Source: an uncultured Anaerolineales bacterium (GTDB lineage: Bacteria > Chloroflexota > Anaerolineae > CG2-30-64-16). From it: DNA of 64,000 bases. Position 1 is the stretch's first letter. Every line of letters begins with the position of its first letter. Of the stretch, positions 6,591-52,988 are shown piece by piece. The notes beneath the pieces are model-generated. The model was not told the origin of the DNA, did not search any database, and worked only from the letters and a program-made list of their open reading frames with translations. The translations under genes and the position numbers were made by a program. The DNA lies in contig CAZTMA010000001.1 of NCBI GenBank assembly GCA_964614645.1, positions 1,295 through 65,294 of the forward strand, in the 5' to 3' direction.

Positions 6591-9001
6591 CAGTCAAATC
6601 CTCCGATTACCCCGCTCGCTGCCCCCACCAGTGCATCGCTCACCCCCGTCGGTCGAAAGGCAAACCGCACGAAAAGCGGGTCGTGATCGGAGCTGCGCAG
6701 GCTCGTCGTGTCGGGCGCCAGCTTCTCGGGGAAATCCGCGTTGATGTGCACCGGTCCGCCTGCGAGATAGTAGGCGTCAAGGCCGGTCGTGGTAACAAAG
6801 TGATCCAGCACCTCGGCACGCCCTTCATAAATGTAAGTATAGCGACCTGCGGGTGAGACATAACGCGCGAAAAGGTTGGCGTAACCTGCGAATGGCGCCA
6901 GCGTGTCGGACGCCAGCAGGTCGTTGAAATCGCCCAGCGCAACCGCGTGCGGCCCGGCATCCGGCGCGCGCAGCAGCTCCGCAACAAACGCCGCCTGCAG
7001 GACGCGGCGCGGAGCATTGTCGGCCTCGTCCCCCCGCTTGGACTTGAAGTGGTTGACGATCACGCGGACTTCGAGCGCCCGGTCGCCGGCCGCATTGCGC
7101 ACGACCAGGTCGGCCACGTAGGGCGGCCGGTCGAACAGCGGATAGGTGCCCTCGGCGCAGGGATTCGTCGTCGCACGGGGTCCGCGTGCGGCAGCATAAT
7201 TCACCCCGTAGTCGGTCGCGGTGCAGGTCTGCGCCGGCGCGCTCCGCCGCAACTCCACGCGTCTGGCATCATAGAGCAGGCCCACCGTGATATCACGGAC
7301 ATCCGCGCTCTCATAATAGTCATAACGGTAGCGTGGCCCCGCGGCCTCCGCCAGCGCGGCCCAGACTGCATCCTTCCCCTCGACTTCCTGCAGCCCTACG
7401 ACCGTGCAGCCCTGCAGGTTCTGCAGGATGGCATTCGCCCGCTTGGCCAGTTGCACGCGGAACTCGGCGGCATTCGCCGGCGACCAGTCGCCCACATCGC
7501 CGTCGCCATCGTCCACTGCGTCGAACAGGTCCAGCACGTTGAACGAGCAGATGGCGAACTCGTCCGGGCCGATGACGCGCTCCATAGGGACGGGCTCAGG
7601 CCGATCCGTCACGGTCAACCGCGCCGGGTCATCCACCAGCAGGACGTACCGGCCGAACTGGTAGGCCAGGATGCCGGTCAGGTCGGTCGCCGCAATCAGG
7701 TCCGCTGTCCCGGCCAGGGGCAGGTCCACGCCCAGCCCGCCCGACAATGCAATGCTGCCGCGACCTTCCGGCAGGAGGGGCGCCTGCTCAGGTGCCGCGG
7801 ACTCCGTGAAGACGCGTAGGCCGTAGTGCGGGCTGCTCCGGTCCACCAGGACAATCTCGGGGTCTCCGGCCGGATAGCGGGACGCGTAGCGGTGCGTCGG
7901 GCCGATGACTGATCCGTCGAAGCTCAGGCTGACCCGCATTCCCTCGAACCGTTCGTAGACCGCGTCCGGGTCAATGGTCGGGTCGCCCGGCGGGGGGATC
8001 GGGCCGGGTGCGGGCAGCGGGCAGCGGCCCGTCATCCGGTATGAGGCAGTCGTATCGTCGGACAGGCCGACAATCTCCGTCTGGCCGTAGAACTCCTGCA
8101 CGCGGAAGTCGACCAACTCGACCAGCGTGCCCGGCGCCAGGCCGCGCGGGTTTTGCCAGGAAGTATAGCGGAAGACGAAGATGCCGTCGGAGGTGGCCGG
8201 GTTCAGATCCGGCGCGGGGTCCTGCAGGAAAAAGCCATCTGCGGTCACGCCGGTCACGCAGCCGGTGAGCCGCCCGAAGGTCGTTTCGTCGTCAAAGGGA
8301 GTAGTGGCTGCAGGGCCCTGTAGCTGCGCAATCGTCACCGCGGGACTGGCCGCAACGCTGCACGCGGCGGGGCGGATGTCCGCCTGGCTGCGCGGCCACA
8401 CCTGCGCGCCATCGTAATCCGCGCTCAGGCCGCTGACGGTGGCCGGGCAGCCGTTCTGCAGGCCCGTGATGGACAGCCCCAGCCGCTCGGTGAGGTAGAT
8501 GAGCGCGCCGCCGACGCGGAAACGCCGCTCGCTGAGCCGCGAGACCGGCCCGGTGAGTTGCACGAGGCGGCCTTCGGTGGCCTCGCCCACCTGGCCGGGC
8601 TGCACGACCTGGGGAGCAGGGGGAGTTGCGCCCGTTCCGAGCCGGATGACACGCGCCGGGCTGTCCGGCAGGATCTCGCGCAGCCCGTGATGCTCCGCGA
8701 GCCGGCCGCTGATGCAGACGGTATCTCCCGCGGCCAGCGCCTGCCCGATGCCACGGCCGGCGTAGACGTAGATTCCGCCGCTCGCATCCTGCAGGGCGAA
8801 CGACTGTCCGTCGGTGAACACCCCGGTGGCTACGCTGACCACGCCCTGGACGGTCACCTCCGTGTCGAGAGGCCGGATGCGCGCCTCCGCAACCGGTATG
8901 GCCCCGGCGCAGGTGGCCTGGGCGTCTGCGGCCGGCTCGGCCGGCAGCATCAGCCATAAGGCGATGAGGAAGACTGCGATGACGCGCGGGCGGTGGGACA
9001 T
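6563..9001 (-). CDS. Secreted extracellular nuclease, ExeM/NucH-like, endonuclease/exonuclease/phosphatase (EEP) family
   Basis: C-terminal EEP motifs (...NHFKSK..GD.ND...SDHDP). N-terminal signal peptide MSHRPRVIAVFLIALWLMLPAEPAADA. Start set at the ATG at 9001 rather than the ORF-track 9058. Confidence 0.75.
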   Translation of the reverse strand: MSHRPRVIAVFLIALWLMLPAEPAADAQATCAGAIPVAEARIRPLDTEVTVQGVVSVATGVFTDGQSFALQDASGGIYVYAGRGIGQALAAGDTVCISGRLAEHHGLREILPDSPARVIRLGTGATPPAPQVVQPGQVGEATEGRLVQLTGPVSRLSERRFRVGGALIYLTERLGLSITGLQNGCPATVSGLSADYDGAQVWPRSQADIRPAACSVAASPAVTIAQLQGPAATTPFDDETTFGRLTGCVTGVTADGFFLQDPAPDLNPATSDGIFVFRYTSWQNPRGLAPGTLVELVDFRVQEFYGQTEIVGLSDDTTASYRMTGRCPLPAPGPIPPPGDPTIDPDAVYERFEGMRVSLSFDGSVIGPTHRYASRYPAGDPEIVLVDRSSPHYGLRVFTESAAPEQAPLLPEGRGSIALSGGLGVDLPLAGTADLIAATDLTGILAYQFGRYVLLVDDPARLTVTDRPEPVPMERVIGPDEFAICSFNVLDLFDAVDDGDGDVGDWSPANAAEFRVQLAKRANAILQNLQGCTVVGLQEVEGKDAVWAALAEAAGPRYRYDYYESADVRDITVGLLYDARRVELRRSAPAQTCTATDYGVNYAAARGPRATTNPCAEGTYPLFDRPPYVADLVVRNAAGDRALEVRVIVNHFKSKRGDEADNAPRRVLQAAFVAELLRAPDAGPHAVALGDFNDLLASDTLAPFAGYANLFARYVSPAGRYTYIYEGRAEVLDHFVTTTGLDAYYLAGGPVHINADFPEKLAPDTTSLRSSDHDPLFVRFAFRPTGVSDALVGAASGVIGGFDCYSQRLRLK

Positions 9002-9170
9002 GGCTGGCCTCACAGTAGGTTGCTTGTCCATGAAAACACAATGCCCGGAGAAGCGCAAACGCGGTCTACTTCCCTTTCTCTGTCTACCAGTTACCCTGTG
9101 CTATAATGCGAAGCACTGTCCGGCTGCCCATGCGTGGCTCGGCCGGTTCCTGCGATCTCCGGAGGCCCTG

Positions 9171-12100
9171 ATGCGACTAGCAGATTTCCCTCGTCCGAAA
9201 AACGATAATCGCCGCGGTGTGCATTGGTCCGCGTCGGTCTACCACCCCGCCGGCGGGGCGCTGGATTTCTGGATTTCCGAACTGCAGGCCATGAAAATCA
9301 AGTGGGTGAAGGTGCTGGATGACAGCGGCGGGTCATCGTTTGAGCTGTGCCAGCGCCTCCTCGCTGCGGACATCATGCCCGTCGTCCGCCTCTATCGCAT
9401 CGAGCCTAACCCGGGCCACATCGGGGGCCGCGAGGAAGACACCATCCGCCGGCTGGTCGCGGCGGGCGTCCGTTATTTCGAGACCAACAATGAGCCGGAT
9501 CTGCCTATCGAGTGGAAGGGCGGCAAGAAGCCGTCCAATTGGCTCGATGTCGTGATCGACAATTTCATCATCGATGCCGACAAGGTCATTTCACTCGGCG
9601 GCCTGCCCGCTCTCCCCGCGATGGGCGTTGGCAGCAAGCTCAACCCGGTTGCTGAGGTCGTTACGCGGGGCCGGGCCGACCTGTTTGACAACGGCGCGTG
9701 GGTGGCCATCCACAACTACACGATCAACCATCCGCTTGACTATCCCTACGACCCGGTCAACCAGGAGGGCCAGCCTGTCAGCGAGGAGGAGTATGACCGG
9801 CTGGGGCAGTGGGCCTGGGAAGGCCGGCCGCGCGAACAGATCAACGAGTGGCGGCAGTCGGACAAGAACCCCGGCGACACGCTGGCGGATGATGCGACCT
9901 GTTTCCTGTCGTTTCACCTGATGGACCAGATGATCCAGGAGGCCCTGGGCCATGCCGTGCCCATCATCAGCACCGAGGGTGGACCGGTCGTCGGCTGGAA
10001 GGAAGACCGCCGCTATCCGCGCGTCGACCCGAACACGCACGCCCAATGGGTGGCTGAGATTGCGGAGTTCATGCAGGGCACGCGCGAGATTCATGGGATG
10101 CGGTGCTCGGACAGCTACTTTTCGATGTGCCACTGGCTCATCGCCAACTACCGCATGGGCTTCCTTGCACCCACTTGGGAGAGCAACTCCTGGTACACGG
10201 ACTGGTGGAACGGAGACTTCAACCTGGCAGGTGAGCTGCCCGTCGTTGCGCGGCTGAAGGCGCTGGATGACCCACCGCCCGGCCCCGTCGACCGGGCCGT
10301 GGTCGCGGGCCACGTCCTGCGTGCCGACACCGGCGCAGGCCTGCCAGACCTCACCGTCAGGCTGCTCCAGGCGGACCGCGAGGTCAAGAGCGCGATCACC
10401 GGGCCGGACGGCGCATTTCGCATCGAGGGCCTGGCCGTGGGCGTCTACGACATCTCGATTGCGCCCTGGGGCATCGTGCGCCGCGGGGTCAGTGCGGTCG
10501 AGGAGGGGCCGGGCAATCCGCTGCCATCCGTCACCCTCCGGCTCAGCGGCGGCCAGAACAGCGTGCTCACGGGCACCGTGCAGAGCGCTACAGGTACGCC
10601 ACAAGCAGACGTCCGCGTCTGGCTGGCCCGCAACGGTGTGCCTGTCGGAGAGACCGTCACCGGCACGGACGGAGCGTTCCGCTTCGAGGCGCTGCCGCTG
10701 GGCTCCTACCGGCTCGACATCCCCGGCATCACGGTCGCAGGCATCGCACTGGACGGCTGGCAGACGAAGAACCTCCGCCTGACTGCGGGAGCGGCGGGGC
10801 AGTATCGGTACGCTGTCGTGCAGCGGCGGCTGCTGCCCCAGGATGAAACCGCGGGCCGGCGGATCTTCTACGGCACGGTGACGGATGCCAGCGGTGCGCC
10901 ACTGAATGGGATCAAGCTGCGGATGGCCTGGAACGGTGCGGAGCCGGGCACGGACTTCCCGACTACGACGACCGGCCGCGATCCGTTCAAGCCTGCGGGT
11001 TCCTACGAGTTTGTGCACAGTCCCGGCACCTTCAACCTGCAGGTGGTACAGGGTGATTGGCCGAGCGATACCGCCGCCGATCTGGAGACGGCAAAGGTCC
11101 CCGGCCGCGAGGGTCAGGACATCACGTATGAGGTCAATTTCCGGCTGCAGGCGGCCGGCGCGCCCGCGCAGGTGGACGGCATGGTCGCGGGCGGCGCGAC
11201 GGATGCCCTGCTGACACTCACCGCCGCGGACGACACGGTGCGCACGACGCGGCTGGCCGGCGACGGCAGCTTTGTCTTCCCCAACCTGCCGGCAGGAACC
11301 TATCGCCTGTCCCTGGATGGCATCGGGGAGATTGCCGCGCAGATGGTGCTGGAGCCGGGTGCGCTGTTCAAGCTGCTCTTCCCCATGCGCAGCCGCCTGT
11401 CGGGGCACGTCGTCGACGCAGGCACGGTCGCGCCCGATGGCCTGGTGGCGGTGCTGTATGCGCCGGCCCCATGGGGCTGGACGCGGCAGGCGTTGCTTGA
11501 CCCCGCCGGCAACTTCGCGATTGACAACCTCCCGGCGGGCAGTTACCGGCTGGAGATCAACGGGCTGACGCTCCCCGACCTGGCGCTGAACGGCGAGAAC
11601 GAACTAAAACTGGCTTCACTCGACCTGAATCAGGGCCAGCGCAGCGTCGTGCGCGGGCGGGTGGCTGATGGTGCAGGCCGGCCCCAGGCGGATGTCCTGA
11701 TGACCCTCCGCCGCGACGGTATTCTGGTCGCTCAGACCCGCACCGACATCATGGGCGTGTACCGGTTCGTCAGGCTGCCGGCCGGAAGTTATCTGCTGGA
11801 GGCGGTGGGCCTGGGCCAGGTGGCGGCCTTCGTGCTCGACGGGGAGCGCCAGGAGGTCGCCGATGTGCTCTGGCCGCTGCCCGGCCCGCGCGGCATGGTG
11901 CAGGGCCATGTGCGGGACGCCGCAGGCGCACTCGTCTCTGGCATCTGGGTGCGTCTCCTGTCTGCGGGCGGCGAGGTCGCGCGCGTGCAGACCGACCTGA
12001 CCGGCGCCTTCCGCTTTGCGGAGCTGCCCGGCGGGGTGTATGCGCTGGCGCTGGCCGAGGGGGAGCCGCTGGTCACGGGCATCGTGCTCGAAGAGGATGC

Positions 12101-12449
12101 ACTGGTCACGCGCGACATCGTACTGCCGCCCGCGCCGGTCAGGCTGCTCGGCCATTATCTGCTGCTGGCTCCGCCGCCGGAGCCTGCCGCGCCGGGCCAT
12201 GCCGAGGCGCGGATGCTCCTGGCGCTGGTGTCGCAGCACGCTACGCGGGCGTCGGGCAGCATCAGTGCCGGCTACAGCGCCACCGACGCGGCCAACGCCA
12301 GCCGCGTCACTATCGTGGGCGACAACGTGCCGCCGGAAGTTGAAGCGACACTCCGGGCCGCAGGATGCCAGGTGAGCCGGCTGTCGGGCGATGGTTACGC
12401 GGTCGCCGCAGGCCTGGCCCAGCTTTTTGCCGAGGGGGTGAACTCATGA
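9171..12449 (+). CDS. Large cell-envelope protein: N-terminal GH-A (GH5-like) TIM-barrel domain, at least 8 Cna-B/carboxypeptidase-regulatory-like repeats, and a C-terminal cell-wall-binding-like (CW_binding_2-like) domain
   Basis: TNNEPD acid/base-like and IISTEGGP nucleophile-like motifs. Repeated ~85-aa units (V.G.V....G.P..DV.V.L......V.TG.DGAFRF..LP.G.Y.L). C-terminal LLGHYLLL..RVTIVGDNVP...RLSGDGYAV. Start at ATG 9171 after a GGAGG site. No signal peptide found. Confidence 0.65.
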   Translation: MRLADFPRPKNDNRRGVHWSASVYHPAGGALDFWISELQAMKIKWVKVLDDSGGSSFELCQRLLAADIMPVVRLYRIEPNPGHIGGREEDTIRRLVAAGVRYFETNNEPDLPIEWKGGKKPSNWLDVVIDNFIIDADKVISLGGLPALPAMGVGSKLNPVAEVVTRGRADLFDNGAWVAIHNYTINHPLDYPYDPVNQEGQPVSEEEYDRLGQWAWEGRPREQINEWRQSDKNPGDTLADDATCFLSFHLMDQMIQEALGHAVPIISTEGGPVVGWKEDRRYPRVDPNTHAQWVAEIAEFMQGTREIHGMRCSDSYFSMCHWLIANYRMGFLAPTWESNSWYTDWWNGDFNLAGELPVVARLKALDDPPPGPVDRAVVAGHVLRADTGAGLPDLTVRLLQADREVKSAITGPDGAFRIEGLAVGVYDISIAPWGIVRRGVSAVEEGPGNPLPSVTLRLSGGQNSVLTGTVQSATGTPQADVRVWLARNGVPVGETVTGTDGAFRFEALPLGSYRLDIPGITVAGIALDGWQTKNLRLTAGAAGQYRYAVVQRRLLPQDETAGRRIFYGTVTDASGAPLNGIKLRMAWNGAEPGTDFPTTTTGRDPFKPAGSYEFVHSPGTFNLQVVQGDWPSDTAADLETAKVPGREGQDITYEVNFRLQAAGAPAQVDGMVAGGATDALLTLTAADDTVRTTRLAGDGSFVFPNLPAGTYRLSLDGIGEIAAQMVLEPGALFKLLFPMRSRLSGHVVDAGTVAPDGLVAVLYAPAPWGWTRQALLDPAGNFAIDNLPAGSYRLEINGLTLPDLALNGENELKLASLDLNQGQRSVVRGRVADGAGRPQADVLMTLRRDGILVAQTRTDIMGVYRFVRLPAGSYLLEAVGLGQVAAFVLDGERQEVADVLWPLPGPRGMVQGHVRDAAGALVSGIWVRLLSAGGEVARVQTDLTGAFRFAELPGGVYALALAEGEPLVTGIVLEEDALVTRDIVLPPAPVRLLGHYLLLAPPPEPAAPGHAEARMLLALVSQHATRASGSISAGYSATDAANASRVTIVGDNVPPEVEATLRAAGCQVSRLSGDGYAVAAGLAQLFAEGVNS

Positions 12450-16880: not shown

Positions 16881-17513
16881 TTGTCTGAACTCAGCCAAAT
16901 CATCGAGGAAATCCGGGCCGAATTTACGGCCAAGAACCAGGTGCGCGATGCGACGCTGAATCGCAGCCGCGAGCTCATCCGCTACTGCGCGTTGAGCATC
17001 CGCGCGATTCACCGGCACGAGTGGGAGGAAGCAGAGAAGCTGCTTGCCACCGCCCGTAACGCGGCCGTGGTCATGTCTGCGGACCTGGCGAACTACCATG
17101 ATATGTATCAGGCCGGCTACACCCAGGACGCGCTCAAGGAAGTGGTCGAGGCCCATCTGCTTTACGCCTTCGTGCGCGACGGGGAGATTCCGTCGCCTGC
17201 CGACCTCCACGTACCCGCGGCGGCCTATCTCAATGGACTGGCGGAGGCGGCCAACGAGCTGCGCCGTTTCGTGCTGGACCTGGTGCGGCTGGGCCGCTGC
17301 GCCGAGGCCGAACCCTTTCTCGGCATGATGGATGACGTCTACAGTCACCTGGTCACCATGGACTTCCCCGATGCCCTGACCGGCGGGCTGCGCCGCTCGA
17401 CCGACGTACTGCGCGGCGTGCTGGAACGCACTCGCGGCGACCTGACCGTCGCCGTTCGCCAGGAGGAGCTTGAGGCCGCGCTGCAGGCCTTCGAGCGCAT
17501 CAACCTGAAGTGA
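16881..17513 (+). CDS. All-alpha protein resembling the translin family (tentative)
   Basis: About 210 aa, helical, with a conserved-looking YLNGLAEAANELRRF segment. TTG start behind a GAGGAG site. Assignment is by eye only. Confidence 0.4.
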   Translation: MSELSQIIEEIRAEFTAKNQVRDATLNRSRELIRYCALSIRAIHRHEWEEAEKLLATARNAAVVMSADLANYHDMYQAGYTQDALKEVVEAHLLYAFVRDGEIPSPADLHVPAAAYLNGLAEAANELRRFVLDLVRLGRCAEAEPFLGMMDDVYSHLVTMDFPDALTGGLRRSTDVLRGVLERTRGDLTVAVRQEELEAALQAFERINLK

Positions 17514-42372: not shown

Positions 42373-43236
42373 ATGGCAGATTTCGGCTCCATCATCAAGC
42401 AGTTGAACGAGTTGAAGAAGGAGGTCGAGAAGGTCGGTCCGGACCTGGCTCCCAAGGTCGGAGAAATCAGTGATGCCCTTGGCCGATTGTCGGTCGAGGT
42501 TGGTGAAATGACGATCGAGCACCGCCCCCAGGTCGAGCCGCCCACGCGGCCGGGCCGGGAGATCGTCGGCGGTGCGGAAACGCAGGACTTCCCCGATTGC
42601 TGCGCGCTGGGGGACGACCGCGGGTACTACTGCTCAGGCACGCTCATCGCACCGAACGTAGTTGTGACGGCGGAGCACTGCCAGGGTCTGACGCGGGTCT
42701 ACCTGCGGGGCACCGACGTGACGAAGCCGGACGGCGCCGAGATTATCCCCATCGCGGAGGAATTCGTCCACCCCGAACTCGACCTGCGCGTCCTCGTGCT
42801 CAAGCACAACGCCGCTACCCCCCCGCGTACGGTCGGCCATGCAGCGCAGTTGGACGGCATCAAAGAGGTCACGCTTGTCGGCTTCGGCACGATCGACCCG
42901 GATGGCCGGTTCGGCTACGGCATCAAGCGCCGGGTGGACGTGCCCATCAAGACGTTCGACTGTGGGCAGATGGGCGAGGCGAAGCGGTTCGGTTGCCTGC
43001 CGGGCCGGGAGATTGTCGCCGGCCATGCAGGGCTGATGCTGGATTCGTGCAAGGGTGACAGCGGCGGGCCGCTCTACATCCAGCAGGATGGCGAGTTCTA
43101 CCTGCTGGGCGTGACCTCACGCGGCGCGCGGGGCGGGTTCCGCGAGTGCGGCGACGGCGGCATCTACGTGCGTGTGGACCTGTGCCTGGATTGGATTCGC
43201 GAAGTGACCGGCGCGGAAATCGCGCAGGCCGCGTGA
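42373..43236 (+). CDS. Cytoplasmic trypsin-like (S1) serine protease with a ~55-aa N-terminal coiled-coil extension (island gene A)
   Basis: IVGG...TAEHC (His)...GDSGGP (Ser). No signal peptide or TM segment. Confidence 0.8.
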   Translation: MADFGSIIKQLNELKKEVEKVGPDLAPKVGEISDALGRLSVEVGEMTIEHRPQVEPPTRPGREIVGGAETQDFPDCCALGDDRGYYCSGTLIAPNVVVTAEHCQGLTRVYLRGTDVTKPDGAEIIPIAEEFVHPELDLRVLVLKHNAATPPRTVGHAAQLDGIKEVTLVGFGTIDPDGRFGYGIKRRVDVPIKTFDCGQMGEAKRFGCLPGREIVAGHAGLMLDSCKGDSGGPLYIQQDGEFYLLGVTSRGARGGFRECGDGGIYVRVDLCLDWIREVTGAEIAQAA

Positions 43237-43260
43237 TCGCGGAGGGCAAGGAGGTCACCG

Positions 43261-44313
43261 ATGCCTAAGGAACTCAACCGCCAGGCCCACATGGTCCTGC
43301 GCGAGGCTCTGACCGGTCTCTATTGGGACGTGAAGGACATCAGGCTGGTCACGAAGGACGCAGGGCTCAATGTCGGACGTATCGGTTGGAACGAGGCGGC
43401 ACAGATCTCGTGGGAGAACGTCCTGAATGAGGCCAACAATCAAGGCTTGGTCAAGGTGCTGGCGCAGCGCGTGCTGAAGGATTACCCCAACGAAGAGCAG
43501 ATCAAGCTGGCTGCGGCAGGCGAACTGACCGCCATCCCAACCCCTTCGCTACCTGCGGAGGACCTGGCCCGCTTGAAGACGGGGGGCCGGCTCGAGAAGA
43601 TCATCGGTGCGGCGAGCACCTTCCGGCCGATCGGGTTCCTGGAGCGCGGCATGAAGGTCTCCCGTTCGGTGTGCCGTGTCGTTCTGCCGCTGAAGCCGGG
43701 CGAGGATAAGCCCGGCACCGGCAGCGGCTTCCTCATCGACGGCAACATTCTCATCACCAACCATCACGTGCTGCCCGATGCAGCGACGGCCCGCGCCGCG
43801 CATGTTGAATTCAACTATCAAACGGACGAATTGGGTGCGGAGCTGACGCCGACCCCCTATGACCTCGATCCGGACGCGCCCAATGGGTTCGCCACCTCGC
43901 TCCTGGATGAACAAGGTGGCGACGACTGGACCGCGGTCAAGGTCAAGGGCGATCCTGCGACGAAGTGGGGCACGCTGCGCATCTTCAAGCTGGAAGCAGA
44001 GGCCATGCCGAAGGAGAAGGATGAGGTCATCGTCATCCAGCATCCCGGCGGCGGACGCAAGCAGATTGCCCTGTCGCACAACACGGTTGTCGAGGCGAGT
44101 GAGCGGCGCGTCCAGTACCTGACCGACACCGCCGAAGGCTCATCAGGCTCCCCGGTGTTCGATGTGAAGTGGCGCGTGGTCGCGCTGCACCACGCTGGCG
44201 ACTGGCTGACCGGCGTGACGACCGGCAAACCGGTATATGCCAACCAGGGGATCCACATCAATCAGGTTATCGCCGGGTTGAGAAAAGCAGGAATGTTAAC
44301 GGACGGCTCTTGA
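43261..44313 (+). CDS. N-terminal ~70-aa helical adaptor (EAD-like, 'N-dom') fused to an active Trypsin_2-like serine protease (island gene B)
   Basis: ITNHHV (His), DDWTAV (Asp), GSSGSPV (Ser). N-dom L..LY......R.V.KDAGL...RI.....AQI.W..V..EA is shared with genes C, D and E. Confidence 0.75.
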   Translation: MPKELNRQAHMVLREALTGLYWDVKDIRLVTKDAGLNVGRIGWNEAAQISWENVLNEANNQGLVKVLAQRVLKDYPNEEQIKLAAAGELTAIPTPSLPAEDLARLKTGGRLEKIIGAASTFRPIGFLERGMKVSRSVCRVVLPLKPGEDKPGTGSGFLIDGNILITNHHVLPDAATARAAHVEFNYQTDELGAELTPTPYDLDPDAPNGFATSLLDEQGGDDWTAVKVKGDPATKWGTLRIFKLEAEAMPKEKDEVIVIQHPGGGRKQIALSHNTVVEASERRVQYLTDTAEGSSGSPVFDVKWRVVALHHAGDWLTGVTTGKPVYANQGIHINQVIAGLRKAGMLTDGS

Positions 44314-44325
44314 GGAGGTCGCATC

Positions 44326-44928
44326 ATGTCGTGGCACGCATCGCTCAGCCGGTTGGTCCAGGTCCTCGCGAATCTCTATGACACCGAAGCACAGGCTCGC
44401 ATTGTGGCGAAGGATGCCGGACTGGACCTGACGCGCATTCCTCTCAGTGGCAGCGCACAGATCTTCTGGGATGCCATCGTGACCGAAGCCCACAAACAGA
44501 ACTGCATGGAAGCGCTGGTGCAGCAGGCGCGGAGTGAGTTTCCCCTGAACGCAGAACTGCAGGCGACCTTGCAGGCAATTCAGCAGGACTATCTCGCCTG
44601 GCAGCAGGAGCCGGTCGTGGTTGAGCCAGCTGCCCCGCGCATCTACCAGCTCACGCCGCAGCAGAAACGGCCGCTTGTCGATGCGCTGCTCGGTTGCCCC
44701 ACGATGCAAGCCCGCCAGAGCCGGGACACTGTCGTAGAGGATCTGCGAGCAGATATCCGGAACAACGTCGAGCGGCACAACGCGCCGCGCCTGGATGTGA
44801 ACAGCATCGTCAGCACTGCGCTGGTCTACGCGGGCGGGCTCCAGGAACTGATCGAGGCCGTGCGCAACTACGAAGGCGACTCGCTGCCGATGATAGAAGT
44901 GGACCGGGTGATCGCTTCGTTCGGGTAA
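44326..44928 (+). CDS. Adaptor protein: N-dom + C-terminal ~90-aa helical 'X' domain (...GGL.ELIEAVR.YEGDSLPM..VDRVI..FG) (island gene C)
   Basis: By-eye alignment of its N-dom to gene B and of its X domain to genes D and E. Confidence 0.65.
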   Translation: MSWHASLSRLVQVLANLYDTEAQARIVAKDAGLDLTRIPLSGSAQIFWDAIVTEAHKQNCMEALVQQARSEFPLNAELQATLQAIQQDYLAWQQEPVVVEPAAPRIYQLTPQQKRPLVDALLGCPTMQARQSRDTVVEDLRADIRNNVERHNAPRLDVNSIVSTALVYAGGLQELIEAVRNYEGDSLPMIEVDRVIASFG

Positions 44929-44963
44929 GGCCATAGCGTCAGTTGCACAGGAGGGCCGGGGGG

Positions 44964-46640
44964 ATGGACGTCGCCAAACAGCGGGAAATCGTGGAGGCTC
45001 TCACTGCCTGTCCCAGCATGGGCAGCGAGCCGCGCCGCGACGCGGTCGTGGAAGAACTGCGCGAGAGCATCCGGTCTGCGATCGACCGCAGCGCGTCAGG
45101 CCGCGATGATGTGACGGCGATTGTCCGCGCCTGTCTCCAGTTCTTCAACGGGCTGGAGGAACTGGTGGCCGCGGTGCGCGTACGCGACGGGGACTCGCTT
45201 CCGATGCAGAACCTCGACCGGGTGATTCTGCGGGTGTTCGGCTTCGACCTGGCGGAGGAGGAGATGGGCCTGCGGTTGCTGACCGTGCTGGCGGGCATCC
45301 AGGCCGCACCGGACGACCTCCAGCGCACCTACCGGCGTCTCCTGCCGCCCGACGTGGCGCCCGCCCCGGATGCTCGCGGCCTGTTCAGCGTGTTGCCGCA
45401 TCTCTGGCAGATATCGCGTGAACTGGCGACGCAGAGCCGCACCGGCAACGTACCGATCCTCGACTTCGTCGAACAACTGGCGCGCGATGCGCCGGGCAGC
45501 GTCGCGGGCCAGTTGCGCGGCTGGGCAACCGAGGTGACATCCCTGGTGCTCTCGACCGGACCCGCGGGACGGCCGGCGGACATGGTTATGCGCGGCACCG
45601 GAACCGGCGACGGCGGGGTCAGCGCGCTGGACCCGCGGCTGGCCATCCTCGCCAGCGTGCTCGCGGCCCTCTATCCTTCTATAGAGGCGTCGGGTGAGCT
45701 GGTGGCCGCAGCGCGCCTGAATCCGGTCGGCATCGAGTTTCGCGAACTGCCCTCGCTCAACTGGCACAACATCCTGACGGCTGCCGCGCGGCGCGACCGC
45801 GTTAGCCACCTGGTCGAAGCTGCGCTGGCAGACCAGCCAGACAACCCCTGGCTGAAGGTGGCGCTGGGCCAGCAGCAGTCGGCTTATGAGCCCGAGGTGC
45901 GGCCTTCCGATGAGCCCACAGCGGTAGCGCAACCATCGCCGGCCGCGGGAAGCCCGCTGCCGGCCTGGCCGCAGCACGTCAGCTTTCTGGAAGAAGCCCT
46001 GAATCGCGCCCAGGCGGTGCTGCTCATCCAGTTACCAAATGGGGGCAGTGGTACCGGCTTCCTCGTACAAGGTGATCTCCTGATTACCGGTGGATTCAAC
46101 ATCCGCAATGTTGCCGAGGCACGCGAGGCTGTCGTCCGCTGCAATTTCCAGCGTACGATGGGAGAACTGATGACGACTTCTGAGGAGCTCCGCCTGTTGC
46201 CGGATCAAGGCTTTGCAACCACAGAGGATCGGCTATGGACTGCGGTGCGGGTTGCCAGGAAGCCGACTGAACGCTACGGCTATCTGCACCTTGAGCCGGC
46301 CAGCCCCCAGGTCAAGGATCGGGTCAGCCTGATCCATCATACCGGAGGCGGGCCGAAGCAACTGGAACTTCTAAATCGGATTGTAATTGATGTGGACAAA
46401 TCCAGTCTCCAGTATGACACGGAGAACCCCCTCCACAGCATCAAGCAGCCCGGGTCCGGGGGGGCGCCGATCTTCGATGTGAATTGGCGGGTCGTCGGGG
46501 TGCATCGTGCGCACGGCACGCTGAAGGCCCTTTCCGGTGGGGAGCGCCGTTGCAGCGAAGGGGTGCACATCAATGTCATCATCGAGGGGTTGAAGGCCGC
46601 CGGCCTGTATCTGGGCAAGGGGGAGGGTGAGACACCATGA
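44964..46640 (+). CDS. X domain + linker + N-dom + degenerate (His- and Ser-less) trypsin-like domain, a pseudoprotease (island gene D)
   Basis: Aligned to gene B, ITNHHV becomes ITGGFN and GSSGSPV becomes GSGGAPI. The X domain sits at the N-terminus (EELVAAVRVRDGDSLPMQNLDRVI). Confidence 0.65.
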   Translation: MDVAKQREIVEALTACPSMGSEPRRDAVVEELRESIRSAIDRSASGRDDVTAIVRACLQFFNGLEELVAAVRVRDGDSLPMQNLDRVILRVFGFDLAEEEMGLRLLTVLAGIQAAPDDLQRTYRRLLPPDVAPAPDARGLFSVLPHLWQISRELATQSRTGNVPILDFVEQLARDAPGSVAGQLRGWATEVTSLVLSTGPAGRPADMVMRGTGTGDGGVSALDPRLAILASVLAALYPSIEASGELVAAARLNPVGIEFRELPSLNWHNILTAAARRDRVSHLVEAALADQPDNPWLKVALGQQQSAYEPEVRPSDEPTAVAQPSPAAGSPLPAWPQHVSFLEEALNRAQAVLLIQLPNGGSGTGFLVQGDLLITGGFNIRNVAEAREAVVRCNFQRTMGELMTTSEELRLLPDQGFATTEDRLWTAVRVARKPTERYGYLHLEPASPQVKDRVSLIHHTGGGPKQLELLNRIVIDVDKSSLQYDTENPLHSIKQPGSGGAPIFDVNWRVVGVHRAHGTLKALSGGERRCSEGVHINVIIEGLKAAGLYLGKGEGETP

Positions 46641-47797
46641 AGTTTGAGGATATCGTGCGCCGGCTGGCGGATTTGTTGGCCGAGTTGTTCCCCGCAGCGG
46701 CCGCTGGGCCGCGCCTTGCCGAGGCAGCCGGCATCGAGTTGGAAGGCAGCCTGCTCGACGGGGGCCAGGATCGGGTAGCCTGGTGGCGCGCCGCGCTCAG
46801 CACAGTGACGGAGGAACAGGTGGGCAAGCTGCTGGCGCTGGCCCAGCAGGAGCGTGCCGGTTCCTTTGCCCTGTTGATCCTGCAGAGCGAATTCGAGCGG
46901 TGGTGGCGCGAACGCCACCAGGTCTACCGCGGGGCCAAATCCGGAGCCCGACCTGAACCGGTGTCCCCACCGGCACCCATTTCGAAGGACGTGGAGCCGC
47001 CCGAAACCACCGGGCCATCCGCTCCGCAATCCTCTTTCTCCGCTGGGGTTGCGGCAGTGACTACCCTGCGGCTGGACGCTGCCGTGCCGGAGCGCGTCGT
47101 AGTAGGCCGGCCCTTCACGATTGCCGTGGCCGTCCGCCAACTGGCCTCCCCGCGGCTGAGCGAGGCGGATATGCCTGTGATGCGCTCCAGCGATGCGCAG
47201 GTGTTCTGGCCCGCGGGGCAGCCGTTCGTGCGGCTGCGCCTCGAGGTCTCGTCGGCATACTGCACGGTGAACAATGAGTCATCGCGCGCCTTCAGGCTCT
47301 ACCAGGCCCACGACTCGCCCACATTCTACTTCTCCCTGACGCCCACCGTTACCGGCCAGATCGATGTCCATATCGAGCTGTACCAGGAAGATGACCTCAT
47401 CGGCAGCACGCGCATCAACACCACGGCGGATGAGCAGGTGCAGCGGCTGGCCGGCACGGTCGAGATCGTGATGCACAGCCAGACCGTCGAGGCTGCGCGG
47501 ATGACGGCCGCGGCGAAGATGAAATTGGCGAAGACGCTGCTGCGCTGCCCGACCGTCCTCGACCGGGAGAATCGGGATGCGATCGTCACCGATCTGCCCG
47601 AGGAGATTCGGCTTGGAGTGAGCCGCAGCGATTCAGCCCTGCTCGACGTCCAGAACATCATCGGGCTGGCTTTGAACTATGAGGGAGGGCTGAACGCCTT
47701 CATCGAGGGGGTGCGCCTGTTCGAAGGCAATTCGCTCCCCATGGCGAAGGTGGATCGCGTCCTGGGCGAGATTGGTTGGGTCGGTCTGGCGGACTGA
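46637..47797 (+). CDS. N-dom + beta-rich middle domain + C-terminal X domain (island gene E)
   Basis: 4-nt overlap with gene D. C-terminus ...GGLNAFIEGVRLFEGNSLPMAKVDRVLGEIG. Confidence 0.65.
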   Translation: MKFEDIVRRLADLLAELFPAAAAGPRLAEAAGIELEGSLLDGGQDRVAWWRAALSTVTEEQVGKLLALAQQERAGSFALLILQSEFERWWRERHQVYRGAKSGARPEPVSPPAPISKDVEPPETTGPSAPQSSFSAGVAAVTTLRLDAAVPERVVVGRPFTIAVAVRQLASPRLSEADMPVMRSSDAQVFWPAGQPFVRLRLEVSSAYCTVNNESSRAFRLYQAHDSPTFYFSLTPTVTGQIDVHIELYQEDDLIGSTRINTTADEQVQRLAGTVEIVMHSQTVEAARMTAAAKMKLAKTLLRCPTVLDRENRDAIVTDLPEEIRLGVSRSDSALLDVQNIIGLALNYEGGLNAFIEGVRLFEGNSLPMAKVDRVLGEIGWVGLAD

Positions 47798-50882: not shown

Positions 50883-51851
50883 GTGGCTATGACTGAGGAA
50901 GCGCGCTTGAGTGCCTACGACGATGCACCCGTCTACACCATCAAGACGGTCGTGCAGGAGACGGGCATCCCGCCGGCCACGTTGCGGGCCTGGGAACGGC
51001 GTTACGGGGTATTGTCGCCCGGCCGCAGCGACGGCGGCTATCGGCTCTATTCGGAGCGCGATATCGCCATCCTGCGCTGGCTGAAAACGCAGGTGGATAC
51101 AGGCGTCTCCATCAGCCGGGCTGTGGCGCTCCTGGAACTGCGGCACCAGGCCGGGGAGCAGCCGGAACGCAAGACCGCCCGATCCGGGCCGGATCAGGCG
51201 CTACTGGCCCCGGCGGGAGCGCGCAGCGCCGATGCCATCGGTGATGAACTGGTGGATGCTCTGTTAGCATTCCAGGAAGCGCGCGTGGAAACCCTCCTGA
51301 ACGAGGCCTTCGCGCTGTATCCGGTGGAAGCGGTGGCCGAGGACATCATCACGCCGGTCCTCGTTGAAATCGGTGAGATGTGGCACCGAGGCGAGGCGAG
51401 CGTCGTGCAGGAGCACTTCGCCACGGCAATCCTGCGCCGCCGGCTGACCGCCCTGTTCCACGCCTACGCGCAGCCCGCCGCGGGGCCGCTGGCCATGACC
51501 GGCTCCGGCCCGTCGGAATGGCATGATGTGGGCATTTTGCTCGTCAGTCTGGTGCTGCGCCGGATGGGTTGGCGGGTCATCTATCTGGGCCAGAATGTGC
51601 CTGCAGACCACTTGGGGCAGGAGATCGCCCGGCTGCGGCCCGCGCTGGTTTGCCTCTCCGCCAGTACCCGCGAAAGCGGAGACGCGCTGGCAGATGTATA
51701 CGAGTTAGTGCGCGCTCTGCCGGAGCCCCGGCCGCGCCTGGTCTTCGGCGGCCGCGCGTTCAATATTCACCCGGAACTGCGGAGCCGCTTTGCCGGCACC
51801 TACATCGCAGGCAGCGCTCGCGAACTCGCAAACGAATTAAGCCTCGGCTGA
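50883..51851 (+). CDS. carH: MerR-family regulator with C-terminal cobalamin-binding domain (CarH/LitR-like light sensor), paralogue 1
   Basis: MerR HTH (YTIKTVVQETGIPPATLRAWERRYG), W-x9-EH motif (EMWHRGEASVVQEHF), B12 Rossmann motif (EWHDVG). Confidence 0.8.
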   Translation: MAMTEEARLSAYDDAPVYTIKTVVQETGIPPATLRAWERRYGVLSPGRSDGGYRLYSERDIAILRWLKTQVDTGVSISRAVALLELRHQAGEQPERKTARSGPDQALLAPAGARSADAIGDELVDALLAFQEARVETLLNEAFALYPVEAVAEDIITPVLVEIGEMWHRGEASVVQEHFATAILRRRLTALFHAYAQPAAGPLAMTGSGPSEWHDVGILLVSLVLRRMGWRVIYLGQNVPADHLGQEIARLRPALVCLSASTRESGDALADVYELVRALPEPRPRLVFGGRAFNIHPELRSRFAGTYIAGSARELANELSLG

Positions 51852-52019: not shown

Positions 52020-52988
52020 GTGAGCATCAACGTGAACGAGCAGCGAGGCGAGACAGATACGCAGCCCGTGTATAACATCAAGGCGGTGGTGGAGGCCACG
52101 GGTCTGCCCGCGGCCACCTTGCGCGCCTGGGAACGGCGCTATGGCGCCCTTGTGCCCGGCCGCACCGACAGCGGCTACCGGCTCTATTCGGCTCAGGACA
52201 TCAAGGTGCTGCGCTGGCTCAAGGCGCGCGTGGAAGAAGGTCTCACGATTAGCCAGGCGATTGCCCTCCACCGCCATCGCAGGCTGGGCGAGCCCGGCGC
52301 AGCGGCCGACGAGCCTCGCGCTGAGAGCCGCCAGGGCCTGACCGGCGCGCGGGATATGCTGCTGGCTGCGCTGATAGATTTTGAGGAGGCGCAGGCTGAC
52401 CGGCTTCTGGAAGAGGCCTTTGCCGTGTACGGCCTCGAAGCGGTGACCGAGCATGTCATCGGCCCCACGATGGTGCAGATCGGTGACCGTTGGCATCGCG
52501 GGGAAGTGACCACCGCGGTCGAACATTTCGCGAGCAACTATCTGCGCCGCAAGATAGACGCCATCATCAACGCCGCGCCGCGCAGCGCCGCCGGCCCCCT
52601 GGTTGTCTTGGGATGTGCGCCGAACGATTGGCATGAGCTTGGGCTGCTCCTCATCTACCTGTTACTGCGCCGCCGCGGCCTGCGCACCCTTTACCTGGGC
52701 CAGAATGTGCCGGTGCTGCAGTTTGTCGAAGAAATGGAACGTCTGCGCCCCGCCATCGTCGTTATTGCTGCTACCACTGCTGAGACCGCTGGCGGCGTTG
52801 GGGAGCTGGCTGCAGCCCTACAGAGCCTGCCCGAACCGCGGCCGGTGTTTGCCTTTGGAGGTCGGGCCTTTAACGTTCAGCCTGAATTGCGCAGGGAGAT
52901 TCCGGGCATCTTTCTGGGCGAGAACGCACGTTCCGCCGTCGAGTACCTCGTAGCCTTACTCGATGACATTAAAACAGTTAGTCCGTAG
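52020..52988 (+). CDS. carH: MerR-family B12-binding regulator (CarH/LitR-like), paralogue 2
   Basis: YNIKAVVEATGLPAATLRAWERRYG, DRWHRGEVTTAVEHF, NDWHELG. Confidence 0.8.
   Translation: MSINVNEQRGETDTQPVYNIKAVVEATGLPAATLRAWERRYGALVPGRTDSGYRLYSAQDIKVLRWLKARVEEGLTISQAIALHRHRRLGEPGAAADEPRAESRQGLTGARDMLLAALIDFEEAQADRLLEEAFAVYGLEAVTEHVIGPTMVQIGDRWHRGEVTTAVEHFASNYLRRKIDAIINAAPRSAAGPLVVLGCAPNDWHELGLLLIYLLLRRRGLRTLYLGQNVPVLQFVEEMERLRPAIVVIAATTAETAGGVGELAAALQSLPEPRPVFAFGGRAFNVQPELRREIPGIFLGENARSAVEYLVALLDDIKTVSP

Follow-up and report, generated by a model that had tools for sequence, protein, structure and literature searches.

A segment of about 90 residues that recurs in three consecutive genes (C, D and E) of the 64-kb window, the whole stretch of DNA that was analysed, is identified by its sequence as Effector-associated domain 2 (EAD2, Pfam PF19956). 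The three genes belong to a five-gene operon (A-E) of a filamentous Anaerolineae bacterium, which encodes three proteins of the serine-protease family, two of them predicted to be catalytically intact and one dead. We consider it probable, at roughly seven in ten, that EAD2 acts as a Death-fold protein-protein coupling adaptor in a bacterial conflict system (counter-invader or programmed cell death), where three EAD2 and four EAD1 domains wire the products of A to E together.

Genes C, D and E are high-GC3 open reading frames, all on the + strand. The first copy of the segment (44656-44925, +) occupies residues 111-200 at the C-terminus of gene C, the second (44970-45242, +) residues 3-93 at the N-terminus of gene D, counted from ATG 44964, which is the start in the database gene call and not TTG 44943, and the third (47507-47776, +) residues 291-380 at the C-terminus of gene E. 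Pairwise BLASTP gave 48% identity over 84 residues for the C and D copies (E 5e-22), 46% over 93 residues for C and E (E 1e-24) and 36% over 88 residues for D and E (E 1e-14), a similarity far beyond chance. The placement at the C, N and C termini of consecutive genes, as given in the preliminary description, is confirmed by the open reading frames, the coordinates and the BLASTP pairs. An invariant Cys-Pro and an SLPM..DRV block had also been singled out there; among the three copies these hold, with Cys-Pro, S-L-P-M and D-R-V all falling within the 27 invariant columns of the three-way alignment, whereas the proline and the SLPM..DRV block are not invariant outside this lineage. The cysteine is at least 90% conserved across the family. 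Variants include C-Q in the family member P0061, the loss of Cys-Pro in P0016 and ASAPM in the ortholog of gene C at locus L001.

The PF19956 profile is matched by all three copies at 28 to 48 bits over its gathering cut-off of 23.8 bits, with 72.3 bits for gene C (positions 1-81 of the 81 in the profile), 71.0 bits for gene D (1-80) and 52.2 bits for gene E (3-80). A profile built from the copies led to 1376 cluster representatives, and PF19956 membership was found for each of the 145 matches scanned, which came from the best 150 of these representatives. The fusion partners among these 145 include TIR, caspase/CHAT, trypsin, VMAP, STAND and other EADs. In a set of 167 family domains, the position of EAD2 is C-terminal in 94, N-terminal in 54 and internal in 19, and a protein-database profile search with the EAD2 alignment gave three matches. 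The segment had been put forward earlier as a new, undescribed family, for which a known family with many fusion contexts was named as the refuting outcome; this is what the profile search from the copies returned, and the mapping onto the curated Pfam family is clean. Novelty would agree with the lack of any NCBIfam or PADLOC model for C, D or E and of a solved structure detectable by sequence, but it can be virtually dismissed given that 3/3 copies match far over the threshold and that EAD2 has already been named by Kaur, Burroughs, Iyer and Aravind (eLife 2020; PMC7159879) and analysed there and in 2021 (PMC8195603). With a curated Pfam entry and a functional hypothesis already in print, the domain itself offers nothing new.

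Besides family membership, the copies resemble published EAD2 in being small, all-alpha, non-catalytic and terminal domains in several adjacent genes, in being fused both to trypsin-type signalling peptidases and to a module of the VMAP type, in co-occurring with EAD1 and in having a filamentous (multicellular) host. They differ in that this host belongs to the Chloroflexota (Anaerolineae), whereas the published distribution is mainly actinobacterial and less so cyanobacterial (PMC7159879), in that neither a MoxR-vWA pair nor VMAP-C lies nearby, and in that no copy has its nearest relative in an adjacent gene. Each copy has non-orthologous homologs at 51-59% identity (P0028, P0041 and P0061) as against 36-48% between the copies, so that the signature of the EAD principle in which adjacent copies are most similar is not seen here. 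The three copies are old paralogs, and as each falls in an ortholog lineage of its own, a recent tandem duplication of EAD2 was rejected.

EAD2 is predicted, with a high-confidence model, to adopt the Death fold. The AF2 model consists of six helices in an antiparallel bundle with Death-fold topology and carries no catalytic motif. On this model the domain would belong firmly to the Death fold, a placement for which the original papers gave only indirect support in the case of EAD2; in the published HHpred table, the only links of EAD2 are to EAD8 and EAD5, the former being linked to bDLD1 in its turn. A profile search of EAD2 against PDB sequences gave nothing below E 0.5, no sequence or profile homology to the known Death-like families (DD, DED, CARD and PYD) was detected, and identities in structural alignments with metazoan Death-fold adaptors are 6-17%. 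A Foldseek comparison of the EAD2 model with viral structures yielded nothing significant (the top match being a herpesvirus CARD protein, E 0.5), and hence no sign of phage decoys. The model of the complete gene C product (pLDDT 90.8, pTM 0.50) has two helical domains, with five helices in EAD1, and between them a linker that is modelled less confidently (averages of 68-70 for residue blocks 91-110). Foldseek found no significant match to this two-domain model in the PDB; full-length ASC, the top match at E 0.28, is suggestive at most.

Two protease genes upstream of gene C are members of the same operon and had been overlooked earlier. Gene A (42373..43236, +; 287 aa) encodes a putative stand-alone S1A (chymotrypsin-family) serine peptidase (Pfam Trypsin PF00089, 67.6 bits) with a 63-residue helical N-terminal extension followed by PGRE-IVGG, an intact His/Asp/Ser triad and Asp189 (DSCKGDSGGP). 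Its N-terminal motif is invariant in four orthologs, no signal peptide was found in it, and the closest PDB sequences are plasmin and trypsin (E about 1e-18). Gene B (43261..44313, +; 350 aa) combines EAD1 (43276-43518; 27.5 bits) with a Trypsin_2 domain (43720-44187; 77.6 bits), where the catalytic motifs ITNHHV, DDWTAV and GSSGSP are all present and the peptidase site is intact. Gene C (44326..44928, +; 200 aa) is a pure adaptor in which a flexible linker joins EAD1 (44338-44607; 44.3 bits) to EAD2 (44656-44925; 72.3 bits).

Gene D (44964..46640, +; 558 aa, or 565 aa from the alternative TTG start at 44943) carries EAD2 (71 bits), the Pfam helical module VMAP-M0 (45270..45536, +; 27.1 bits, cut-off 25.9), an internal Pfam EAD1 (45645..45860, +; 28.1 bits) and a trypsin-like domain (46050..46502, +; Trypsin_2, 33.7 bits). 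In the latter the triad motifs are lost, as ITNHHV is replaced by ITGGFN, DDWTAV by LWTAV and GSSGSP by GSGGAP; His, Asp and Ser are gone, and from its motifs the domain is classed as a pseudo-peptidase. It is 78-79% conserved among orthologs, and the body of gene D is a paralog of gene B (E 1e-39). A protein-database search with gene D gave four close orthologs, and a metagenome scan with a D-like alignment gave one 1.6-kb contig. The start of gene E (46637..47797, +; 386 aa) overlaps the stop of gene D by 4 nt. Its product comprises a weak EAD1 (46646-46882; 18.2 bits), a middle domain (47078-47392) weakly matching DUF7363 (22.6 bits), both scores being below cut-off, and EAD2 (52.2 bits); no PDB sequence relative was found for it. 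EAD1 thus recurs in B, C, D and E, a second adaptor domain that the preliminary description had passed over.

At least five assemblies keep the operon together as a unit next to the same housekeeping genes; an alignment-based search for related loci found five in Anaerolineae, and gene D is absent from the operon in one lineage. A mobile defence island was rejected, as the operon is flanked by syntenic housekeeping genes, which do not form such an island. Hypervariable sensor modules were also rejected, since conservation is highest, at 93%, in the putative sensor modules; this is the value for VMAP-M0 in the two orthologous loci with a gene D that were compared (L011 and L005). No Pfam match to MoxR/AAA_3, vWA, STAND or GAP1 was found in the scanned open reading frames of the 64-kb window, none to MoxR/AAA_3 or vWA in the orthologous loci, and no STAND/NLR-like ATPase between the housekeeping genes flanking the operon. 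Because the window holds no core NTPase and gene D has EAD2 fused to VMAP-M0 without VMAP-C, the canonical thresholding switch is either missing or encoded elsewhere.

At somewhat under even odds, the operon would be a satellite of a canonical ternary system elsewhere in the genome, without autonomous function, and EAD1 and EAD2 would tether the products of A-E to a VMAP/iSTAND-MoxR-vWA or STAND core that is encoded far away and bears cognate EADs. According to Kaur et al. (PMC7159879), the genes of additional EAD proteins frequently lie apart from the core, and such proteins tend to occur together with a core component bearing the same EAD; canonical VMAPs with an N-terminal EAD2 are among the close matches (P0022, P0070 and P0017), and other Anaerolineae encode EAD1-TIR-EAD2-FGS and CHAT-EAD2-FGS proteins. 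Against such dependence, the operon already possesses a VMAP-derived, sensor-like D and its own bridging adaptor C, and A-E are kept together as described above. We regard as rather unlikely a reading in which A-E make up a proteolytic machine for death or signalling that is complete in itself, needs no NTPase and is wired by Death-fold adaptors. It would consist of an adaptor as bridge, a peptidase as initiator, a pseudo-peptidase of VMAP descent as regulator and an executioner of the zymogen type, and would be fixed at a core chromosomal locus of filamentous Anaerolineae. If so, it might serve developmental or programmed filament cell death and not classical anti-phage defence, and would be a bacterial analogue of the FADD/caspase-8/cFLIP logic without an apoptosome-like ATPase.

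The earlier suggestion of a dimerising or coupling adaptor fits the published reading of the family (PMC7159879, PMC8195603) and the Death-fold model. Homotypic EAD2 association is something we infer from the architecture; neither an EAD2 binding experiment nor a multimer prediction was found in the literature searched. EAD2 is shared by the adjacent genes C, D and E, with D also bearing a trypsin-like domain, and the active peptidase B is linked through EAD1. An improbable alternative is that EAD2 binds a partner other than EAD2 (a protease domain, VMAP-M0 or an invader protein), the copies being parallel receptors. The Caulobacter LypABC system offers a precedent, as two-hybrid assays show its protease binding, through the CARD, to the N-terminal domain of the NLR-like ATPase, which is not itself a CARD (PMC13236601), and old paralogs with distinct ortholog lineages are compatible with diverged specificities. 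Like-with-like bridging is nevertheless simplest for a domain that recurs at both N and C termini in adjacent genes beside a pure EAD1-EAD2 protein, and Death-fold domains typically associate homotypically (PMC8195603).

Under the coupling-adaptor reading, a trigger would be sensed by the non-enzymatic modules, namely VMAP-M0 of D and/or the middle domain of E, an EAD1-unknown domain-EAD2 protein. EAD2-EAD2 and EAD1-EAD1 association would then build a higher-order complex, with C as the EAD1-EAD2 bridge, in a logic comparable to FADD or ASC, and D, a VMAP head on a B-like body, as a pseudo-peptidase comparable in logic to the pseudo-caspase cFLIP. The complex would concentrate and activate B, the EAD1-tagged trypsin-like peptidase, which may cleave targets that possibly include the pro-segment of the S1A trypsin A just before IVGG, giving a proteolytic cascade. 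The nature of the trigger, the sequence of steps in the cascade and the function in the cell are likewise proposals. Counting against this reading are the lack of a core NTPase in the window and of VMAP-C in gene D, the closer homologs that each EAD2 copy has elsewhere, the strong conservation of the putative sensor modules, the housekeeping flanks, the missing PADLOC models for C, D and E and the lineage devoid of gene D. As a compact, conserved set without any NTPase (an EAD1-EAD2 bridge, an adaptor-tagged peptidase, its dead paralog with a VMAP head and a zymogen-like trypsin), the locus would be handy for biochemical tests of the "EAD principle", the hypothesis that such domains couple homotypically.

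The metazoan Death-fold adaptors (DED, CARD, PYD and DD; FADD, ASC, caspase-8 and cFLIP) have no detectable sequence homology to EAD2 here, and those systems use caspases whereas the operon proteases are trypsin-fold serine peptidases. Oligomerisation is a proposal in the case of EAD2, which also sets it apart from these adaptors. In the bacterial CARD-NLR systems (the Lysobacter gasdermin system, Azospirillum and Caulobacter LypABC; Wein et al., Banks et al.), the operon must supply a STAND/NLR-like ATPase together with an effector (gasdermin, nuclease or phospholipase). Neither is found here, and the adaptors of those systems are of a CARD-like family in place of EAD1 and EAD2. An N-terminal EAD is placed on a trypsin-like domain in B (EAD1) and D (EAD2), with sequence families that differ from the Lysobacter CARD. 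The VMAP ternary systems contain VMAP-C, vWA and MoxR, all three absent here; they share the head of gene D, whose first ~190 residues (EAD2 and VMAP-M0) are 36% identical to the canonical VMAP P0022. VMAP-C, which scores 141.7 bits in P0022, has no Pfam match in gene D, and its C-terminal place is taken by EAD1 and the inactive trypsin domain.

A total of five co-directional genes were found on the forward strand at 42373-47797, with a GC3 pattern as in true coding sequence. Gene A (42373-43236) encodes an S1A trypsin, gene B (43261-44313) carries effector-associated domain 1 (EAD1) and Trypsin_2, and gene C (44326-44928) consists of EAD1 and EAD2. Gene D (44943/44964-46640) combines EAD2, VMAP-M0, EAD1 and Trypsin_2, while gene E (46637-47797) places a middle domain with a weak DUF7363 match between EAD1 and EAD2. 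The intergenic gaps A-B, B-C and C-D are 24, 12 and 35 nt respectively, D and E overlap by 4 nt, and the database gene call starts D at the ATG at 44964.

The repeat reported at the C, N and C termini of genes C, D and E was found in all three places. Three-way alignment of the copies (47% identity to the first copy) has 27 invariant columns, C-P, S-L-P-M and D-R-V among them, and pairwise BLASTP gives E-values of 5e-22 (C-D), 1e-24 (C-E) and 1e-14 (D-E). The preliminary description had taken this repeat for a possible novel domain, an idea to be abandoned if it mapped cleanly onto a known family with many contexts. In the Pfam scan all three copies match PF19956, "Effector-associated domain 2" (EAD2), over nearly the whole 81-position profile with scores of 72.3, 71.0 and 52.2 bits (gathering score 23.8). 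By these matches the domain is already known and the claim of novelty falls, EAD2 being a defined, published family with many fusion contexts. EAD1 (PF19955), a further adaptor, turned up in the same scan in each of genes B to E, although the match in E is below cut-off.

A profile built from the copies and searched against 1.84 billion cluster representatives retrieved 1376 proteins at E <= 1e-3 and 693 at E <= 1e-10, and all 145 of the top matches that were scanned belong to PF19956. Partner domains among them include TIR, VMAP-M0, VMAP-C, CHAT/caspase, Trypsin_2, EAD1, EAD7, EAD8, bDLD1, FGE-sulfatase, calcineurin-like phosphoesterase, SIR2 and STAND NTPases, and EAD2 lies at a protein terminus in 148 of the 167 occurrences examined. 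In one match, the VMAP protein P0017 (775 aa), three EAD2 copies in tandem precede VMAP-C; this natural multi-EAD2 hub could serve for modelling EAD2:EAD2 contacts. The adaptor-type function guessed for the repeat agrees with the literature. Kaur et al. (eLife 2020; PMC7159879) defined the family and proposed EADs as coupling adaptors that use homotypic contacts to link effector or signalling domains with core conflict systems. They observed a preference of EAD2 for signalling peptidases and nucleotide-utilising domains, and that one protein may contain both EAD1 and EAD2; the coupling idea was later formalised as the "EAD principle" (PMC8195603).

That EAD2 adopts the Death fold is a prediction, not a proven fact. 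The AlphaFold2 model, computed from an 8-sequence alignment of the copies and relatives, has six helices (mean pLDDT 93.6, pTM 0.85) and aligns with Death-fold structures over 65-83 of 90 residues at 2.4-3.5 A. This likeness is invisible to sequence methods: the EAD2 profile search against PDB sequences gave no match, and in the HHpred table from the literature EAD2 connects with EAD8 and EAD5 alone. In the model of full-length C (pLDDT 90.8, pTM 0.50), a less confident linker (residue blocks 91-110 average 68-70) separates two independent helical domains, the predicted layout being that of a bipartite adaptor. Foldseek returned nothing significant for this model, the best match being full-length ASC (E-value 0.28).

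Gene D seems, from its sequence, to be a chimera. Its head (44964-45536; EAD2 and VMAP-M0 in the first ~190 residues) is 36% identical to P0022, a canonical VMAP protein with EAD2, VMAP-M0 and VMAP-C, and over the C-terminal two-thirds D is paralogous to B (30% across 347 aa, E-value 1e-39). Because head and body match these different proteins, D looks like a VMAP head in which VMAP-C has been exchanged for EAD1 and a pseudo-peptidase body. VMAP-C is thought to communicate with MoxR-vWA; unlike the canonical VMAP system, D is devoid of VMAP-C and MoxR and vWA genes are absent nearby. The trypsin-like domain of D (46050-46502) has lost all three catalytic residues in the window and its orthologs (ITNHHV to ITGGFN, DDWTAV to LWTAV, GSSGSP to GSGGAP), and is still 78-79% conserved among the latter. 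It is a pseudo-peptidase descended from an active ancestor and inactivated within its own protein lineage, since the remote homolog P0036 (40% identity) retains the triad; another, P0061 (44%), does not.

The catalytic triad is intact in gene B. Gene A is a canonical chymotrypsin-family peptidase, closest in the PDB to plasmin and trypsin, that retains His, Asp and Ser, with Asp189 within DSCKGDSGGP. No signal peptide was found in A, a cytoplasmic S1A trypsin. Its helical N-extension of 63 residues ends in VEPPTRPGRE-IVGG, a motif invariant in four orthologs, and S1A zymogens are activated by a free Ile-Val-Gly-Gly N-terminus; A is for this reason plausibly a pro-enzyme. PGRE-IVGG looks like a zymogen activation site, so that a proteolytic cascade may have A as its downstream target.

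Conservation within the operon is highest, at 93%, in its non-enzymatic modules, namely VMAP-M0 in D and the middle domain in E, which are thus not hypervariable. The latter (47078-47392, ~120 aa; 93% among orthologs) matches DUF7363 only below threshold and has no relative among PDB sequences, and it recurs in the profile-search proteins P0037, P0110 (with CHAT) and P0063 (with EAD7). Each EAD2 copy in the window is closer to relatives in other organisms (51-59% identity) than to the copies in neighbouring genes. The three are old paralogs, and the expected signature, with adjacent copies most alike, is missing.

Orthologs of C were found only in Chloroflexi/Anaerolineae MAGs. The operon lies between the same neighbours in loci L001/L007, L005, L011, L012 and L013/L014 (C identity 65-89%), and in the ADurb.Bin325-type lineage (L013 10001-11766; L014) the order is A-B-C-E. 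As E here comes straight after C and D is missing, the pseudo-peptidase cannot be obligatory. Both flanks are housekeeping: GH127, an HpcH-type aldolase and a 2-hydroxyacid dehydrogenase upstream, and TrkH/TrkA, a ParA-like ATPase, two MerR-B12 regulators and Crp downstream. The two regulators (50883-51851 and 52020-52988) are tandem paralogs of the light-responsive CarH/LitR-like type, kept in orthologous loci. Among 35 Pfam-scanned window ORFs, including every one above about 550 aa, none encodes MoxR, vWA, STAND or GAP1. In the main rival explanation, the operon would be a satellite to an NTPase core encoded at a distance.

On the best-supported reading, the operon forms a proteolytic module for conflict or cell death that is wired by EADs. 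C, D, E and B would be assembled through EAD2-EAD2 and EAD1-EAD1 contacts, B would be activated by proximity and might afterwards process A, and the role of D would be non-catalytic, as scaffold, sensor or regulator; binding, trigger and cascade order are all inferred. Our literature search found no experiment on EAD2 itself, and experimental precedent comes only from analogous bacterial CARD-like domains, one indispensable to the protease-dependent activation of gasdermin in Lysobacter (PMC10312443) and one through which proteins make a defined contact in Caulobacter LypABC (PMC13236601). Some interest attaches to the Anaerolineae host, the lack of any NTPase nearby, the bridging protein made solely of EAD1 and EAD2, and the pseudo-peptidase with its VMAP head.

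Two single large proteins from other Anaerolineae, EAD1-TIR-EAD2-FGE-sulfatase (L008 9155-11143, 662 aa) and CHAT-EAD2-FGE-sulfatase (L009 8753-11245, 830 aa), could act as sensor-bearing partners in the EAD networks of this class. A STAND-like ATPase gene lies ~5 kb upstream of the former.

Elsewhere in the window, a 1211-aa protein (8814-12449) with many CarboxypepD_reg/prealbumin-like repeats adjoins, on the opposite strand, an 831-aa protein of the endonuclease/exonuclease/phosphatase family. Finally, a 210-aa ORF (16881-17513) matches the Translin family, which is uncommon in bacteria, at 24.7 bits, just below the Pfam cut-off of 25.9.
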